NCBI RefSeq assembly: GCF_004010195.1
Contig: NC_057719.1
Location: forward strand, 14,382,364-14,446,363
Source: Chiloscyllium plagiosum
Lineage: Eukaryota
Reading direction: 5' to 3'
DNA: 64,000 nucleotides
Positions 8,140-54,299 of this stretch are shown here, piece after piece. How positions within the stretch are numbered: the first letter of the stretch is position 1; each line of letters opens with the position of its first letter. The notes under the pieces are model-generated. The model was not told the DNA's origin. It did no database searches and was given only the letters and a program-made list of their open reading frames with translations. The position numbers were made by a program, and so were the translations under genes.

Positions 8140-8362
8140 GTTGCAGTGGAGGAACTGAGAAGATTTACTGCCACAGAAGGCTGTGGAGGCCAGGTCATTG
8201 AGTATACTTAAGACTGAGATAGATAAGTTCTTGAGTATCAATGGGATCAAGAGATATGGAGAGAAAATGGTACAATGGGGTTGGGAAACGTATTAGCCAT
8301 GATTGAATGTTGAGCAGATTTGATGTGCTGAATGGCCTAATTTCTGCTCCTATGTCTTATAT
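8140..8362 (+). mobile_element. CR1 3' end
   Basis: LPQKAVEARSLSILKTEIDKFL..KGI-like remnant and 'gctgaatggcct..ctcctatgtcttat' tail. Confidence 0.8.
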
Positions 8363-8364
8363 TT

Positions 8365-9320
8365 CAATGAAATAGAGTCTTTCCTGGAAGCAGGGTGTGA
8401 GGATGTATAGTTGAAGTAACTGTGGGAGTCATTTGGTATGGAATGGATATTGTGGTCAGCCTAGCTCCCGAAATGAAAATAGAGATGTTAGCAAAGGGAG
8501 GGGAGGAGTCAGATATGGACCAGGCATAAGGAAGAGCAAGGTGGAAATTGGAAATTGATGAATATTTCCAATTCTGGATGAGAGAGGGAAGCAGCACTGA
8601 TGATGTTATCGATATGCCAGAGAAAGAGTTGCAGCGTAGGACTAGAACAAGGAAAGCCCCATGTACCCCAGAAAGGTACAGTCAAAACTTGTGCCCATGC
8701 CTGTATCTATGGCCAGACCTTTGATCTGAAGAAAGTGGGAGGAGTCAAAAATGAACCTACCCAGGGTGAGGAGCAGCTCAGCCAGATAGAGGAAGCTGGT
8801 GGTGGATGGGGACAATTCAGGCCTTTTTTTCCAGGAATAAGTGGAAAGCCCTGAGACCATCCTGATGGAGTATGAACGTGTAAAAGGATTGCATGTTCAT
8901 GGTAAAGAGGCAGTTAGAACCTGCAAACTAGAAATTCTGATGTATAGCGGGAGAGGGATTGTGGATATCAGTGGGAAGGCACTGTACAAGGGAGAGGGGG
9001 ATTAAAATCGAGTCAAGTTAGGAAGAGAAGAGTTATGTGGGGCAGTAACAGCCAGAAACAATGGGTCTGCCTGGGGATTCCTGTTTCTGAATTTTGTAAA
9101 GGAGATAGAAGAAGGCTATATGGGGTTGGGGGTCTGTGAATTTGGAGGAAGTGGCGGTGGGACCACCAGTTGAAATGAGGTTAGTTATTAGGACACAAGA
9201 CTTGGCATTCCATGTTGGGGTAATGATCCAAGGGAAGATAGGAGGAGGAGGTGGTACCTGAAAGCTGGTACTCAACCTCCACAATGCAGAGGTTGGTACG
9301 CCAGACAACAGCACCATTTT
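8365..9320 (-). mobile_element. Decayed Penelope-like reverse transcriptase
   Basis: FYLLYKIQKQESPGRPIVSGCYCPT and HFLQIKGLAIDTGMGTSFDCTFLGY match Penelope RT motifs (PKIHK..PGRPIVS; G.AMG). Confidence 0.85.
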
Positions 9321-9377
9321 GGGAAGCTCTGCTCTATGGCAGGCTCCTTAGATAAAGAGACCAAAGCTGCGTATAAC

Positions 9378-10280: not shown

Positions 10281-10445
10281 CTATATGAATATGCAGAAAA
10301 TGGATTTACTATCAATCTCCTCTGATAGGTGGAGAACAGAGGTACAGAACATTATCACAGAGTTTTCTATTTTAAGTAGAATACATTTTATAAAAAGTAA
10401 AATTGCAGAACTCAACTGCAAAGAGTTGCCAGTGTGGTCTATTGT

Positions 10446-10896
10446 GCATGTAGGTTTGCTCGCTGAATGGAGATTCATTTTCAGACGTTCGTCACCCTAT
10501 TGGGTAACATTTTCAGTGGGCCTCAGGTGAAGCAGTGTACATGTTTCCTGCTTTCTATTTATATGTTTGGGTTCCTTTGGGTTGGTGATGTCATTTCCTA
10601 TTCTTTTTCCCAAGGGGTGGTAGATGGGGTCTATCAACAAACACATTGAATTAGACCCCATCTACACCCCCTGAAAAAAATAGGAAATGACATCACCACA
10701 GGAAATGACATCACCAACCCCAGGAAACCCAAACATATAAGTAGAAAGTAGGAATCATCAGCAGTTCTTCGCCCGGAGGCCCACTGAAGGTGTTACCTAG
10801 TAGGGTGACAAAACATCTGGATATGAACCTTCCAGCTCAGCGAGCAAACCTACATCCAGAACCTCAATCTGAACTACAAATGTTCTCAAAACTCGC
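10446..10896 (+). mobile_element. Penelope-like terminus, family C, fold-back insertion
   Basis: About 10448-10632 is inverted relative to about 10654-10856; TSD tggtctattgt at 10435-10445 and 10897-10907; degenerate hammerhead motifs on both arms. Confidence 0.8.
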
Positions 10897-12089: not shown

Positions 12090-14325
12090 TTTTCATTCAT
12101 TCATGAGCCGTAGGTATTATTGGTGAGGATAGCATCTATTGTCTATTCCTAGTTGCCATTGAGAAGGTGATGTGTTGCTGGAAAAGCACAGCAGGTCAGG
12201 CAGCATCCAAGAAGCAGAATCAACGTTTTGGGCATGAGCCCTTCTTCAGGAATGAGGAAAGTGTGTCCAGCAGTCCCAACCCTCAAACTCAGCACCACCT
12301 TCCTAACCTGCAATCCTCTTCCTGACCTCTCCGCCCCCAACCCCACTCCGGCCTATCACCCTCACCTTAACCTCCTTCCACCTATCGCATTTCCAACACC
12401 CCTCCCCCAAGTCCCTCCTCCCTACCTTTTATCTTAGCCTGCTGGACACTTTCCTCATTCCTGAAGAAGGGCTCATGCCCGAAGCGTCGATTCTTCTGCT
12501 CCTTGGATGCTGCCTAACCTGCTGAATTCTAAGGTGAATTCCAGCAACACATTTTCAGCTCTGATCTCCAGCATCTGCAGTCCTCACTTTCTCCTTGAGA
12601 AGGTGATGGTGAGCTGCAGTCCATATGCTGTAGGTTGGCCTGCAATGCCCTTAGGGAGGGAATTCCAGAATTTTGACCCAGTGATGATATATTTCCAAGT
12701 CAGGATGTTGTGTGGCATGAAATGGAATTTGCAGGTGATGATGTTACCATGTATCTTTTGCCTTTACCCTACTAGATGGTCGTGGATGTGGTTTTGGATG
12801 GCACTGCATAAGAAATTTTGGTAAATTTCTGCAATGCATCTTGTAGATATTGTTGAGACTGAGCATTGCTGGAGGAGGCAGTGTATGCTTGTGGGTACAT
12901 TACCAGTCAAGCTTGTTGAAATGGCACACATCCAGACAAGCGGGCAGTATTCCATCACACTCCTGAGTTGTGACTTGTAGCTAATTATCAAGTTTCAGGG
13001 GGTCAGGAAGTGAGTTATTCACTGCATGGTTCCTTGCCTCTGAACAGCCAATGTAGCCAATTATTTATGTGGCTAGTCCAGTTCAGTTTATGATCAATGG
13101 TAACGCTCAGGATGACGAAAATAGAAGATTTAGTAAAGGTGATGCCAAAGAACAGCAAGGTGTGATCCTTCCTTATTGGAGATAGTTATTGTCCAGCACA
13201 AATGTTAGTCTCCAATTGCCATCTCAAGCCTGGATATTGTTTTGTTCTGGATGCATTTGAAGTGCCTGCTTCAATTTCCGAGGATCACAAATGGTGTGAA
13301 CATTGCACAATCATCAGCGAACATCCTCACGTCTGATCTTATGATGGAGGGAATGTCATTGAGGAAGATGGTTGGGCCAAGGACATTACTCTGAGGAACT
13401 CCTGCAGAGATGTCCTGGAGCTGAGATGACTGACCTCCAACAGCCACGACCATCTTCCTATGTGTCAGGTATGATGCCAACTGGCAGAGAGCTTTCACCC
13501 GATTACCATCGATTCCAGTTTTCTAAGGGCTCCTTGATGCCTTGGTCAAATAGAGCAGTCAACTCTCACTTCACCTTAGAATTCAGATTTTTTCTTCATG
13601 TTTGAAGCCTGTAATGAGCTGAGTGGCCTTGGCAGACCCTAAACTGGGCGTCACTGAGCAGATTAATGCTGCTTAGTAACACTATTGATGTAACCTTCCA
13701 TCACTTTACTGATGATCAAGAGTAAACAGATGGGGCAGTTATTGGCTGTGTTGTATTTCTCCTGCTCTTTGAGTACAGGACATGGCTGAGCAATTTTCCG
13801 CATTGTTGGGAAGATGCTAATGTTGTAACTCTAATAGAAGAGTTGGGGAGCGGCAAGTTTTGGAGCACAAGTCTTCAGTACTATTGCCAGAATGTTGTCA
13901 GGGCCCACAGCCTTTGCAGTATCCAGTGCCTGCATCACACTTGTTGATATTGAGTGGAGTGAATCGAATCGGCTGAAGACTGGTAACTGTAATGTTGGGG
14001 ACCACCGGAGGAGGTCGCAATGGATCATCTGCTGAAGATTCTTGCTAATGCTTCAGCCTTATCTTTTTTACTGATGTGCTGAACTCCTTCATCACTGAAG
14101 ATGGGAATGTTTGTGAACCCTCCACCTCAATGAGTTGTTTAACTGTCCACCTCCATTTAGAACCAGGTCTGGCAGGAGTGCACAGTTTAGATCTGATCCA
14201 TTGGCTGTGGGATCATTTAGCTCTATCACTTGCTGCCTATGCCGTTTGGTAACTTCACCAGCTTGACATCTCATTTTATGTTCCTAGCATACCCTCCTGC
14301 ACTATCCACTAAATTAGGGTTGATC
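12090..14325 (-). mobile_element. Second LINE family (CR1-group), ~2-kb decayed RT and C-terminus
   Basis: KAVGPDNILAIVLKTCAPKLAAP; SYLTHRKMVVAVGGQSS..AGVPQSNVLGPTIF..MFADD; YKSQLRSVMEYCPLVW. Confidence 0.9.
12173..12594 (+). mobile_element. Penelope-like terminus, family A, with 5' inverted partial copy
   Basis: TSD ttgagaaggtgatg at 12159-12172 and 12595-12608; hammerhead-like motif at 12461-12488. Confidence 0.9.
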
Positions 14326-17193: not shown

Positions 17194-17432
17194 CAAGAGC
17201 AGGTGAGGACTGCAGATGCTGGAGATCAGAGTCGAAGAGTGTGGTGCTGGAAAAGCACAACGAGTCAGGCAGCATCCGAGGAGCAGGAGCATAAGCTCTG
17301 ATGCTGTTAGGAATGTTCGTGATGTTCCTCTTCACCACTTTCCCGATGAAGAGCTTATGCTCGAAACATTGACTCTCCTGCTCCTCGGATGCTGCCTCAC
17401 CGGCTGCGCTTTTCCAGCACCACACTCTTCGA
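17194..17432. mobile_element. Penelope-like family A fold-back insertion
   Basis: Inverted arms at about 17229-17288 and 17374-17435; TSD ctcattctcctt at 17182-17193 and 17433-17444. Confidence 0.9.
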
Positions 17433-18505
17433 CTCATTCTCCTTTATCTCATTTTCGTTAAGTCCAGAAGTACATGCAACTGAGGTCAACTTCAACAATC
17501 AAAAACTGCCTGTTACATAACCCTGTCCTGCCAGTTATATCTAATCAGCTTGTTCAGAGATATTATTACACATGCCCGGAGCAAGTGAGACTTGAACTCA
17601 GGCCTCCTGATGAAGCCATATCCCATTTTTAGGAGGCCAGGTCATTTTGAAGCCTCAATCACATGACTAACTCCAGACCAATATTTTAATCAATGGTAAA
17701 GCAACATTTCAGTGTTCTGCCACCTCTCTTCCTCCTCCCTCCACAAAACCAATTATAAACTTATCCTTTAGCTGCTGCACGACTGAGTAAACCTGAGAAT
17801 ATGAGTTGTCTACACTTCCCTTTATTTGACTTCCTAAAACCACCCAGGGACTATTGTAATCCTCAACACTGAATCTGTTGGTCACCTTTGCTGATACTCA
17901 GGCAGCATCTCCTTTAAAGTAATTCATTTCGTTCTGTTCTCCCATTGCTCAGATGACTAGCCTGTGGAATTCTCTGCCGCAGAAAACCACTGAGTCAAAA
18001 ACACAGAACTTTTTCAAGGAAGAGTTAGACATAATTCTGAGGGCTAAAGAGTAAGGGGACCAAGTGAGAACAGAGTATTGAGTAATACTTTGAGAAATTC
18101 ACTTGTGGGACTTGAGCCCCGATGGCTGGCCCGCATTTATTTCCAATCCCAAATTGCCCTTGAACAGCCATGTTCAGGTTGAACAGCAGAAAAGGCTCAA
18201 AAGGCTGAAAGGGTGAATCCTGCTCTTATGTGACCTCCAACAATCACAAATATCATTCATTGTGCTAAAGGTGACTCCAACCAATGCAGGCCCATATGTA
18301 GATATATAGGGTTAGTTCACAGATTAGCCAACATCTCATTGAACGATGGTAGAATGGTTCAATGGACAAAATGACCTTCTCCTATTCCTATGACTCATAG
18401 TCCTTTGAGGAGAAAGTGAGGTCTGCAGATGCTCGAGATCAGAGCCGGAGATGTGTTGCTGGAAAAGCGCAGCAGGTCAGGCAGCATCCAGGGAACAGGA
18501 GAATC

Positions 18506-18533
18506 GACGTTTCGGGCATAAGCCCTTCTTCAG
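18506..18533 (-). ncRNA. Minimal type I hammerhead ribozyme motif
   Basis: Minus strand CTGAAGA-A-GGGC-TTAT-GCCC-GAAA-CG-TC; catalytic core intact. Confidence 0.75.
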
Positions 18534-18538
18534 GATTC

Positions 18539-18566
18539 CTGAAGAAGGGCTTATGCCCGAAACGTC
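18539..18566 (+). ncRNA. Minimal type I hammerhead ribozyme motif
   Basis: CTGAAGA-A-GGGC-TTAT-GCCC-GAAA-CG-TC; catalytic core intact, palindromic ACGT at stem III. Confidence 0.75.
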
Positions 18567-20001
18567 AATTCTCCTGTTCCCTGGATGCTGCCTGACCTGC
18601 TGCGCTTTTCCAGCAACACATCTCATAGTCCTTTGAGTCTACCGATCTCATACAAATAGACAATACACAGAAAATTCAACAACCTTCCTCCTTTACAGAA
18701 GCAACTCACATCAGGTTGCAACCATGGGTGCCCAATGTAAATGTGGAGATGAAAACTGGACCTTATAATCACTGGAATTTAAGATTATACTTTCAATTAA
18801 TTTGGAGATAGTTAGTAGTCTCTATGAAGACTAACTTAAGTGGAATATCTTATCCAAGTAAAAATAAATAAACCTCACCTGATGGGGCAATGTTTTTATA
18901 TTTTGGAATTGCAACTCATTGCTTCTGACATTAAAGTATGTTCAATTACTAGAATTGCTCATTAGTTATTTGCTTAGTTTATCTAAGGTCAAGTGAAACC
19001 TGAGAACATGCCGTGTGAGAGAGACTTGTAACAACTCAATGTTGAAAAAGATCAGCAGTTTACAGCATTAACTTTAATTGCTAATCAGCATTAAACCACA
19101 CCACAGCAAGTCCCAGATCACCTTGAGGGCTTAAATGGCAAAAAGGCAGAGAAAATATGGGGTTGAACCTTACTGTGCTTTGGCTAAGTTTGGGTTACAT
19201 TGAGGGATTTTGTTTGCTGTAGGATTTCTCCCTGTATATGACCAACCTTGCCTCATTGACTGACAAGGGCATTGGCTGGTCAGTTAGCTAGAAATGGTAT
19301 GCAAGGGAATGGGGAGAAAGCAGGAGGTTGGCATAATAGGCAGAATGGTCTCCTTCTATGCCATTAGAATTCTGTGATCTACTCTGCCCTGTAACGTCCC
19401 TGAATCCCAGAACATCTTGCCACTCAGTGGATGTTCACTGAAACACTCCTGTTGCCCGCACCACTCCTTCATTATCCTGACAGCCCATTTCATCACATCT
19501 CCCTCACCACCACTCCCCATGTGGAGACCCGCCACTCCCCCTCCTCAATAGCCTGCCGTCCCCCCCAATGTTGATCCACTTACCACCTCCCCCACCCACT
19601 TCACTGACTTTACCCCGGCCCTATCCTTTTCCCCACCTCAGCCCATGCCTCTGCTGTCTCCTGCCAGCCTCGACTTACCCACCCCTTTAGGCAATGACCC
19701 TCCCTCTCTGCCCCTATTCCAGCCAGCCCCCTCAACAATCAATGCATGGACTCCGAGCACTGGATTCAAACCAGATCTCTGACCTACATTGACTAGCAGC
19801 CCCTAGACCTTTCTGACCAGACTGCTGACCATTGTCTTTGCAGCTCTCAGACTGACAACATGCAAATCGCTTGATCTTTGGTGATGCCCACTCCCCAGAG
19901 TGTAGTCAGACACATCCATGACCATGCCCTGCCCAAGCGGGCAAAGACTGTGACCAGCCCCTGGACTGTATGTGCCCATGATTGATGGCATTGGCTACAT
20001 G

Positions 20002-23214: not shown

Positions 23215-24105
23215 ATCTAATGATTCAGGTACATATGAAAGTTCTTTGAAAGATGCACCACAGGTAGATGTTTAGCACACTTGCCTTCAGTATTCAGAGC
23301 ACTGAGTATAAGCGTTGGGACGTCATATTATGGTTGTACAGGATGTTGGTGAAGCCACTTTTGGAATACTGTGTACAATTCTGATTGCCGTGCTATAGGA
23401 AGAATATTATTAAACCGGAGAGCATCTAGAAAAGTGAATGATACTGGAACTGGAAGATTTGAATTATAAGGAGAAGCTGGAACGGCTGGGGCTTTTTTCA
23501 CTGGAGCGTAAGAGGCTGAGGGCTGCCCTTATAGAGGTTTATAAAATCATGAGGGGCATTTTAAAGGTGAACAGCCAAGATCTTTTCCCTAGGGTGGGGG
23601 AGTTCAAAACCAGGGGGCATATTATTTAATGTGAGAAGAGAAAGATTTAAAAGGGGCAACTTTTTCATGATTTAGAGACGCCGGTGTTGGACTGGGTGGA
23701 CAAAGTTAAAAATCACACAAAACCAGGTTATAGTCCAACAGGTTTAATTGGAAGCACTAGCTTTTGGAGCTCTGCTCCTTCATCAGGTGGTTGTCAAGGA
23801 GCAGCACTCTGAAAGCTGGTGCTTCCAAATACACCTGTTGGACTATAACCTGGTGTTGTGCGTTTTCAACTTTTTCACACAGAGATTAGTGCGCATATGG
23901 AATGAACTGCCAGAGCAAGTGGTAGATTTGGTATAATTACAACATTTAAAAAAGATCTTTGGACAGGTCCGTGATTAGGAAAGATTTACAGGGATATGGG
24001 CCAAATGCAGGCAAATGGGACTAGTTTAGTTTGAGAAACATGGTCGGCATGGGCGAGTTGGACTGAAGGGACTATTTCTGTGCTGTATGACTCTAACTAT
24101 GACTC
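23215..24105 (+). mobile_element. CR1 3' fragment
   Basis: LEDLNYKEKLERLGLFSLERKRLRAALIEVYKIMRG..FFTQRLVRIWNELPE. Confidence 0.9.
23668..23865. mobile_element. Penelope-like terminus, family B, fold-back nested in CR1
   Basis: Inverted arms ccaggttatagtccaacagg / cctgttggactataacctgg; flanking caacttttt repeats; minus-strand CTGATGA-A-GGAGC-AGA-GCTCC-AAAA-GC-TA at 23786-23758. Confidence 0.85.
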
Positions 24106-30230: not shown

Positions 30231-30436
30231 GGAGAAAGTGAGGACTGTAGATGCTGGAGATCAGAGCTGAAAATGTGGTGCTGGAAAAGCGCAGCAGGTC
30301 AGGCAGCATCTAAGGAGCAGGAGAATGGACGTTTCGGGCTTTCCTGAAGAAGGGCTCATGCCCGAAACGTCGATTCTCCTGCTCCTTGGCTGCTGCCCGA
30401 CCTGCTGCGCTTTTCCAGCACCACATTTTCAGCTAA
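30231..30436. mobile_element. Penelope-like family A fold-back insertion
   Basis: Inverted arms; TSD gcattaatata at 30220-30230 and 30437-30447. Confidence 0.92.
30344..30371 (+). ncRNA. Minimal type I hammerhead ribozyme motif
   Basis: CTGAAGA-A-GGGC-TCAT-GCCC-GAAA-CG-TC. Confidence 0.75.
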
Positions 30437-40973: not shown

Positions 40974-41105
40974 CGGAGAAAGTGAGGACTGCAGATGCTT
41001 GAGATCAGAGTTGAGAGTGTGATGCTGGAAAAACACAGCAGGTCAGGCAGCATCCGAAGAGCAGGGGAATCGATGTTTTGGGCATAAGCCTTTCATAAGG
41101 AATGA
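40974..41105 (-). mobile_element. Penelope-like family A terminus (single arm)
   Basis: TSD caagggaacca at 40963-40973 and 41106-41116. Confidence 0.88.
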
Positions 41106-45268: not shown

Positions 45269-45721
45269 GAGATTTTCCAACACTAAGGACTGAAGCTAAA
45301 ACTCTTAAAAACCTTGATGGCTTACCTGGTTTTGGAGGACATTTTGTACATTTATGGTACCCCCATGATATTCCTACGCTCCCACAACAATCATCCTGTT
45401 TTGTGAGACCTGGAAGGGGTTTTCCACACTAAAATATAAAGACAAGAAATTAATTGTAGCCACAAGTGCCTTAGACCTTTATGGGAAAAAAGGTTTCTCT
45501 TCTTCCTAATAGTCAATTGTTTTACTTTTGGCCATGGTTAATAGTTGCTCATCAGATTGACAGATTCATAAAATAAGTTGGGAAAAAGGAAGGAAAAAAT
45601 ATGTCCCCATAGCCAGATTCATTTATTCCCATTGCAGCACCTAATTTGCTACTTTACAGATTTGAGAAATGGAAAACATGTTAATCTAGCTGTGACTTGT
45701 GATCAAGAGCTCAATACAAAT

Positions 45722-45893
45722 AGGAGAAAGTGAGGACTGCGGATGCTGGAGATCAGAGTTAAGAATGTGTTGCTGGGAAAGCACAGCACGCCAGGCAGTA
45801 TCCGAGGAGCAGGAGCAGAGGAGCAAGAGATTCTCCTGCTCCTCGGATCCCACCTGACTTGCTGTGCTTTCCCAGCAACACACTCTCGACTCT
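45722..45893. mobile_element. Penelope-like family A fold-back lacking the ribozyme segment
   Basis: Inverted arms; imperfect TSD gagctcaatacaaat (45707-45721) / gagctccatccaaat (45894-45908). Confidence 0.85.
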
Positions 45894-48100: not shown

Positions 48101-48189
48101 AGTCATGTGGCCTAATTGACAAGGCGTCAGACTTCAGTATTAATTGGTATGCTATCAGAAGATTGCAGGTTCAAGTCCCGCTGTGATCA
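48101..48189 (+). pseudogene. tRNA-Arg(TCG)-like pseudogene with a 16-nt intron; anticodon now TCA
   Basis: Body tggcctaattgacaaggcgtcagacttcag|tattaattggtatgct|atcagaagattgcaggttcaagtcccgctgtgatca resembles vertebrate tRNA-Arg-TCG; insertion lies one base 3' of the anticodon; several stem mismatches. Confidence 0.8.
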
Positions 48190-53084: not shown

Positions 53085-54215
53085 GGAAAAAGTGAGGACT
53101 GCAGATGCTGGAGATCAGAGCTGAAAATGTGTTGCTGGAAAAGCGCAGCAGGTCAGGCAGCATCCAAGGANNNNNNNNNNNNNNNNNNNNNNNNNNNNNN
53201 NNNNNNNNNNNNNNNNNNNNNNNNNNNNNNNNNNNNNNNNNNNNNNNNNNNNNNNNNNNNNNNNNNNNNNNNNNNNNNNNNNNNNNNNNNNNNNNNNNNN
53301 NNNNNNNNNNNNNNNNNNNNNNNNNNNNNNNNNNNNNNNNNNNNNNNNNNNNNNNNNNNNNNNNNNNNNNNNNNNNNNNNNNNNNNNNNNNNNNNNNNNN
53401 NNNNNNNNNNNNNNNNNNNNNNNNNNNNNNNNNNNNNNNNNNNNNNNNNNNNNNNNNNNNNNNNNNNNNNNNNNNNNNNNNNNNNNNNNNNNNNNNNNNN
53501 NNNNNNNNNNNNNNNNNNNNNNNNNNNNNNNNNNNNNNNNNNNNNNNNNNNNNNNNNNNNNNNNNNNNNNNNNNNNNNNNNNNNNNNNNNNNNNNNNNNN
53601 NNNNNNNNNNNNNNNNNNNNNNNNNNNNNNNNNNNNNNNNNNNNNNNNNNNNNNNNNNNNNNNNNNNNNNNNNNNNNNNNNNNNNNNNNNNNNNNNNNNN
53701 NNNNNNNNNNNNNNNNNNNNNNNNNNNNNNNNNNNNNNNNNNNNNNNNNNNNNNNNNNNNNNNNNNNNNNNNNNNNNNNNNNNNNNGGACCAGTGGGGTT
53801 CTGTCCTGGTGGCGATTGGAGGGGTGGGGCTCAAGGGCGGAGGAGCGGGAAGTGGAGGAGATGGGGTGGAGAGCATCGTCGATCACGTCTGGGGGGAAAT
53901 TGCGGTCTTTGAAGAAGGAGGCCATCGAGGTTGTACAGTATTGGAACTGGTCCTTCTGGGAGCAGATGTGGAGGAGATGAAGGAATTGGGAATATGGGAT
54001 GGTGGTTTTACAGGGGGCAGGGTGGGAGGTGGTGTAGTCTAGGTAGCTGTGGGAGTCGGTCGGTTTATAGTAAATGTCCACGTTGATTCGGTCGCCCAAG
54101 ATAGAAATGGAGAGGTCTAGGAAGGGGATGGAGGCGTCTGAGATGGTCCAGGTAAATTTGTGGTCGGGGTGGAAGATGTTGGTAAAGTGGATGAACTGTT
54201 CAACCTCCTCGTGGA
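53085..54215 (-). mobile_element. Young Penelope-like element, family A (RT thumb plus terminus), spanning the assembly gap
   Basis: DIYYKPTDSHSYLDYTTSHPAPCKTTIPYSQFL..FFKDRNFP; family A terminus at 53085-53170. Confidence 0.92.
53171..53786. other. Assembly gap
   Basis: Run of N. Confidence 1.
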
Positions 54216-54299
54216 AGAAAAATCAAAAAGTAAAGATAAGGAGATTGAAATACAATTAAGAGAGACTATGTTTGATCAAATAGTTGAGACAAAACAAGT

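Follow-up and report, generated by a model that had tools for sequence, protein, structure and literature searches.

The palindromic insert at 18410 in the 64-kb window (the whole stretch of shark DNA analysed here) is best explained as a stump, dead on arrival, of an endonuclease-bearing Penelope-like retroelement (PLE) recently inserted into a probable intron, and we give this explanation as a whole a probability of about 0.9. Recomputation confirmed the 177-bp palindrome that a previous, sequence-only reading had described, with 88-nt arms, a 1-nt spacer and a single mismatch (C18505/A18567), so that the arms are complementary at 87 of 88 positions. The flanking 16-bp direct repeat claimed by the same reading was also recovered; it is exact and not extendable, and 3 nt of its right copy overlap the right arm. 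A 16-nt match was found in one of 3000 random window pairs at the spacing of this target-site duplication (TSD), and that pair may be the 18394 repeat itself or another insertion. The palindrome is smaller than the whole insert, which begins with a 38-nt tail that has no mirror copy on the right side and belongs to the element (Table 1).

Table 1. Positions of the insert, its parts and the related features in the window (a dot marks features given no strand)
Feature	Position	Strand	Remark
Left 16-bp TSD copy	18394–18409	.	Single copy in the empty allele; its first and its last four bases are reverse complements of each other
38-nt tail, 3′ end of the PLE copy	18410–18447	−	On this side only; tail as in the available parts of PMC3846280, PMC8557442 and PMC11167929
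Left arm, tail-bearing 5′-truncated copy	18448–18535	−	Reaches 2 nt upstream of hammerhead C3
Minimal type I hammerhead core	18506–18533	−	Extra A before the 4-bp helix II; loop III absent
Spacer T	18536	.	Equals position −3 of the plus-strand copy; A18535, common to both arms, is a 1-nt microhomology
Right arm, tail-less 5′-truncated copy	18537–18624	+	Reaches 3–4 nt upstream of C3; final 3 nt in common with the TSD
Second minimal hammerhead core	18539–18566	+	G-to-A at position 1.1 (18567, CpG site) breaks helix I
Right 16-bp TSD copy	18622–18637	.	Exact match to 18394–18409
Sole LTBP2-like exon found in the window	45327–45428	−	34/34 codons match shark LTBP2-like proteins
Same-family 3′ end and reading frame	53085–54222	−	3′ end at 53085–53170; frame at 53788–54222, beyond an N gap

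We consider it very likely that the insert is an ordinary inverted insertion of a PLE. The terminal-repeat hammerhead motif, the inverted 5′-truncated copy, the one-sided tail of 30–40 nt and the TSD are all present at 18410, and an inverted pLTR with a tail of 30–40 nt at one end, a 5′-truncated copy and a TSD make up the published layout of PLE (PMC3846280, PMC8557442, PMC8969392; the publications cited here and below were available in part). The head-to-head inversion is a routine product of PLE insertion, and the element had not been named by the sequence-only reading. Very short 5′-truncated PLE inserts, with a median of 128 bp, were reported to arise de novo in Chlamydomonas (PMC9977147). 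The inserts of endonuclease-bearing (EN+) PLE with an inverted pLTR and a tail (PMC3846280; PMC8557442) have the same head-to-head 5′-truncated copy, tail, TSD and junction palindrome, whereas the shark insert is without any ORF sequence, has a 1-nt spacer and has an empty allele that was directly observed. Its TSD is 16 bp long, compared with 8–10 bp in the rotifer examples that the available texts give.

An ORF for reverse transcriptase (RT) and GIY-YIG is absent from the insert itself, and the link of the family to such an ORF is indirect and crosses an N gap. The family copy at 53085 sits downstream of a frame of 145 codons, and about 600 bases of N separate the two. The best homologues of this frame are shark proteins with 74–80% identity, and it is 41–51% identical to longer homologues carrying RVT_1 and GIY-YIG; a Pfam search with the frame itself gave no family. 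The names of the homologous proteins were the basis for taking the host to be a shark. A broken RT reading frame on the minus strand at 8302–9327 is 34–59% identical to the same PLE-type proteins.

The left 127 nt of the insert matched six other loci in the window, giving a family of seven loci; four extra matches of 32–33 nt belong to a looser relative and do not enter this count. Five of the seven loci are inverted pairs (12166, 17197, 18410, 30232 and 45724), the locus at 40976 is a solo copy, and the copy at 53086 is cut by the N gap. The outer end, that is, the tail, was found on one side only in every inverted pair; it measures 38 nt at 18410 (42 nt counting overlaps), and the short arms fall 24–42 nt short of the 3′ end at the four loci where the aligner reached this end. 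All six loci tested had best flanking repeats of 11–16 bp with 0–2 mismatches. A G precedes the tail at six of the seven loci, and at 18410 this G belongs to the target, because the empty allele shows it. Since the sibling arms are only 87–95% alike, as against 87/88 at 18410, the 18410 copy is, judged by arm divergence, the most recent of the window's inverted copies. The tail arm of the 12166 copy has a 9-nt insertion that forms a small internal palindrome (12525–12545). When 46,057 contigs of one run were aligned to the stretch, the depth was concentrated on the element; summed contig depths were not taken as copy numbers.

Inverted pairs of other repeats were also observed. The pair at 10442–10861, in which 163 of 191 aligned bases are alike, has decayed hammerhead-like cores on both strands with a longer helix II and is probably a second PLE family. 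A third repeat forms an inverted pair (70/81 alike) at 23699–23876 within a LINE fragment, and its minus strand has a minimal hammerhead-like core.

All three DNA runs carry the empty site, which makes the insertion young and either polymorphic or lineage-specific. Four runs were aligned to 17800–19300, namely the DNA runs X1 and X5 (organism A, different studies) and X11 (organism B) and the RNA run X21; the DNA runs represent two near-identical sharks and one relative. The empty site has a single target copy in the contigs of each DNA run. One contig each of X1 and X11 joins 18393 directly to 18622, and a single contig of X5 joins 18396 to 18627, two bases shorter. The flank letters differing from the window numbered 3 of about 1270 in X1, 11 of about 1250 in X5 and 45 of about 1275 in X11, plus gaps, and the empty contig of X1 may be the other allele of the source animal. 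These contigs show the presence of the empty allele, not the absence of the filled one; the filled allele, which was not among the listed pieces of any run, a minority of all pieces, is known only from the window. The claim of a very recent insertion agreed with these empty sites and with the identity of the arms at 87 of 88 positions, the one difference being a CpG to CpA change at one of the eight original CpGs. At 18655 and 18085, a 7-base deletion and an A-to-G change common to X1 and X5 are absent from the window and from organism B, so that neither organism A sample has the haplotype of the window. The base at 18491 made up about half of the aligned depth in organism A (X1, X5) and about 4 in 100 in organism B, which suggests that it marks a subfamily that grew in the lineage of organism A.

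From the structure, the TSD, the empty allele and the family membership, all of which were directly observed, we infer how the insert may have been formed. The RT-endonuclease of the PLE would nick both strands 16 nt apart, and each 3′ end would prime the reverse transcription of uncleaved element RNA; an uncut template is suggested because each arm continues past the predicted cut site. One priming at the outer start site would give the tail, and the other, about 40 nt further in, would give the tail-less arm. Both cDNAs would stop just past the hammerhead core, their ends would be joined at the 1-nt overlap and filled in, and one CpG would have decayed since the insertion. The palindrome and the paired hammerheads would then be by-products. 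We rate the two-primer step at slightly better than even odds. The fuller proposal is tentative and falls somewhat short of even odds; in it, the RT-endonuclease acts as a dimer and primes on sense RNA at each of the staggered nicks, using the two start sites that bound the tail, and the cDNAs are end-joined without an antisense template.

In LINE-1 twin priming, two nicks and two primings produce an inversion between TSDs, and the pieces come mostly from different parts of the RNA. In contrast, both shark arms start near the 3′ end and hence mirror each other. In agreement with double priming, the purified PLE protein of Anolis was reported to cut and extend both strands, with two start sites bounding the tail (PMC11167929). 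In the same in vitro work on Poseidon of Anolis carolinensis the RNA template was uncleaved, which resembles the shark arms crossing the cut site, whereas the shark target lacks the ATT preference. A statement of the double-priming explanation for head-to-head PLE inserts was not found in the literature searched, which left most subscription papers outside its scope.

It is possible, though rather unlikely, that the same element made its second arm by copying the first cDNA through fold-back, or by self-priming on antisense RNA, the latter being the published reading of junction palindromes according to the available text of Arkhipova et al. 2013 (PMC3846280). In favour of this, the arms were identical at insertion and have variants in common (4 columns, of which 2 fall in the TSD overlap) that the other window loci lack; however, these shared variants may only mark a subfamily, the 18491 base being so common in X1 and X5. 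Fold-back of a tail-bearing cDNA needs a tail arm that is longer at the centre plus a loop, so that 18410, 30232 and 17197 break this rule clearly and 45724 marginally. Relative to C3, the tail-less arm reaches −3/−4 and the tail arm −2 at 18410, with A18535 common to both, and the tail-less arm also reaches further 5′ at 30232 (−3 vs. +16), at 17197 (−3 vs. +29 aligned) and marginally at 45724 (+28 vs. +32), the alignment ends of the decayed 17197 and 45724 copies being uncertain. Only at 12166 does the tail arm reach further (−109 or more vs. −22), and this copy fits fold-back equally well. The junction at 18410 would need template bases (−3, −4) that are missing from the tail arm, and fold-back would leave a loop of 0–1 nt there, with 30232 being more extreme; a tail-less cDNA, in turn, is unable to template the tail. 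Double priming from two nicks is compatible with all five inverted loci, a number too small to settle the matter. The aligned contigs gave 416 different joints (15 shown), which were not used for the fold-back test because, on a palindromic reference, the tail cannot be assigned to one arm or the other. At 45724 the tail-less arm begins right on the predicted hammerhead cut (45829, +28); this is one case in five and could be due to chance or to a cleaved template.

The window contained five hammerhead motif matches, whereas none of 100 shuffles reached five and the shuffle maximum was 0. The CTGAAGA boxes of the insert start at 18539 (plus strand) and 18533 (minus strand), each 3 nt from the palindrome centre. 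The cores on both strands have the extra base 9/10.1, the G10.1–C11.1 pair and a palindromic 15.2–16.2 four-base helix III without a loop, the features compared being those given in PMC4209133 for minimal type I hammerheads. The core boxes, too, are those of the metazoan PLE hammerheads described there; the shark differs from that account in its helix II of 4 bp (Schistosoma families 7–8), in cores 5 nt apart and in a broken helix I on the plus strand. The minus core has a predicted cut between 18506 and 18505, and all 6 pairs of its helix I are possible, made in part by the junction; the plus core can form 4 of 6, its closing pair being broken by the arm mismatch at position 1.1. The cores had previously been called intact, which is true of their letters but not of loop III, which is absent, nor of this closing pair. 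No hammerhead match at the gathering score of Rfam was found across the window, nor was one among the 23 matches obtained in 10000–32000 with E allowed up to 10.

It had also been proposed that a long hairpin would block the folding of the ribozyme. In silico, helix II had a pairing probability of 0.0000 in the whole-insert fold, where helix I of both cores was likewise unpopulated, and forcing the hammerhead fold cost 53.6 (plus) and 51.1 (minus) kcal/mol. When most of the opposite arm was removed, helix II was predicted to form at ≥0.98; because 8–9 nt of that arm were kept in these single-arm folds, the low values they gave for helix I do not serve as a clean control. The predicted blocking therefore stands but carries little weight, because, in the available text of PMC4209133, minimal hammerheads did not cleave when present as a single motif, dimers had low cleavage, and pairs lying close together on opposite strands were noted. 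The cores of this locus are likewise not expected to self-cleave as monomers. The Anolis motif was reported to cut only with the element protein, and cutting was dispensable for insertion (PMC11167929).

The LTBP2-like exon encodes a TB domain and is the only host exon detected in the 64 kb. The Pfam scan, which covered 299 of 379 stop-free frames outside repeats and left out the 79 shortest, yielded this exon and two retroelement domains, and no other 10-residue stretch of the 1872-residue LTBP2-like protein matched the window at 8/10. The insert lies probably in an intron of more than 45 kb of a minus-strand LTBP2-like gene, if the gene is intact and collinear, a placement taken from one exon, with the following exon outside the window. 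A tRNA-like match of 36 bits at 48101–48189, interrupted by a long insertion at its anticodon arm, is a candidate tRNA gene, pseudogene or SINE head.

A transcript of the insert is plausible because the site is probably in this intron. If the host pre-mRNA reads through, the RNA would fold into a hairpin of 87 pairs, hiding a ribozyme that would be unable to cut alone anyway. In the minus-strand RNA the helix is predicted to be uninterrupted, as the mismatch becomes a G–U pair, and the whole-insert MFE is −209.9 kcal/mol. Intronic RNA is nuclear, which favours ADAR over Dicer. Such a fold would suit a hairpin that is transcribed in the LTBP2-like intron and then edited by ADAR or cut into siRNAs repressing the family, that is, a working silencing or editing substrate; we regard this as improbable. 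In the RNA run X21, of which about 2 in 100 were read, 6 of 30 bins had depth, every one of them on the element, and no reads lay on the unique flanks; the X21 animal may lack the insert, so the run is uninformative on the locus. The family reads in this one run go in both directions, as a silencing substrate might lead one to expect; however, 97 in 100 aligned reads continue into unlike sequence and thus come from other copies, and none is locus-specific. A>G changes occurred at 6 and T>C at 6 places, compared with 5 and 3 in the DNA run X1, and with many copies mixed these counts cannot show editing. The insert also appears too young and patchy for a selected regulator, being one among very many such hairpins. 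The idea of double-stranded RNA and siRNAs is already in print for Drosophila Penelope, in which the inverted repeat could likewise give double-stranded RNA; siRNAs matched the inverted Penelope regions in transformed D. melanogaster, but the available text says that they silence Penelope inefficiently (PMC3681739).

There is very little chance that a non-autonomous palindromic unit, MITE- or retrozyme-like, moved as a whole. The similar size (about 180–240 bp) and the TSDs at four of the five inverted loci would suit it, but the palindrome centres differ at all five, the aligned contigs hold many different joints, and neither terminal inverted repeats nor a head-to-tail tandem is present. A symmetry centre lying 3 nt from CTGAAGA, which the sequence-only reading had singled out, exists at 18410 but was rejected as a fixed feature, since it holds at one of the five inverted loci. 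Other classes were rejected as well. For a MITE, the left end is an unpaired tail and the centres vary, in place of a constant interior with terminal inverted repeats. A non-LTR retrozyme needs two or more head-to-tail hammerhead units according to the available text of 10.64898/2026.07.22.740005, and the units here are only head-to-head. The best Rfam score for a microRNA precursor was 50.3 bits against the 97 needed, and such matches were those of generic hairpins.

An assembly or library fold-back artefact, which might be thought of since the empty site is found in all three DNA runs and the filled site is listed in none, is hardly credible, as a chimera would mirror the flank rather than duplicate exactly 16 target bases, would not give a one-sided tail as in the four older siblings, and is not expected to place a CpG transition between the arms.

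The empty allele and the probable host intron are what is new here, and the insert itself is ordinary. In the partly available literature that was searched, no article centred on the PLE hammerheads of sharks or on polymorphic PLE inserts in sharks was found. The locus matters little in itself; it is a non-coding PLE stump that is usable as a presence/absence marker. It shows the recent activity of a PLE family in this shark lineage. The steps yielding inverted PLE inserts are still undefined according to the available parts of PMC8557442 and PMC11167929, and young inserts whose empty sites are known lend themselves to comparing the two-primer model with the fold-back or antisense models. If double priming is true, the polymorphic shark family would allow the cut geometry and the junction rules to be counted over many events.
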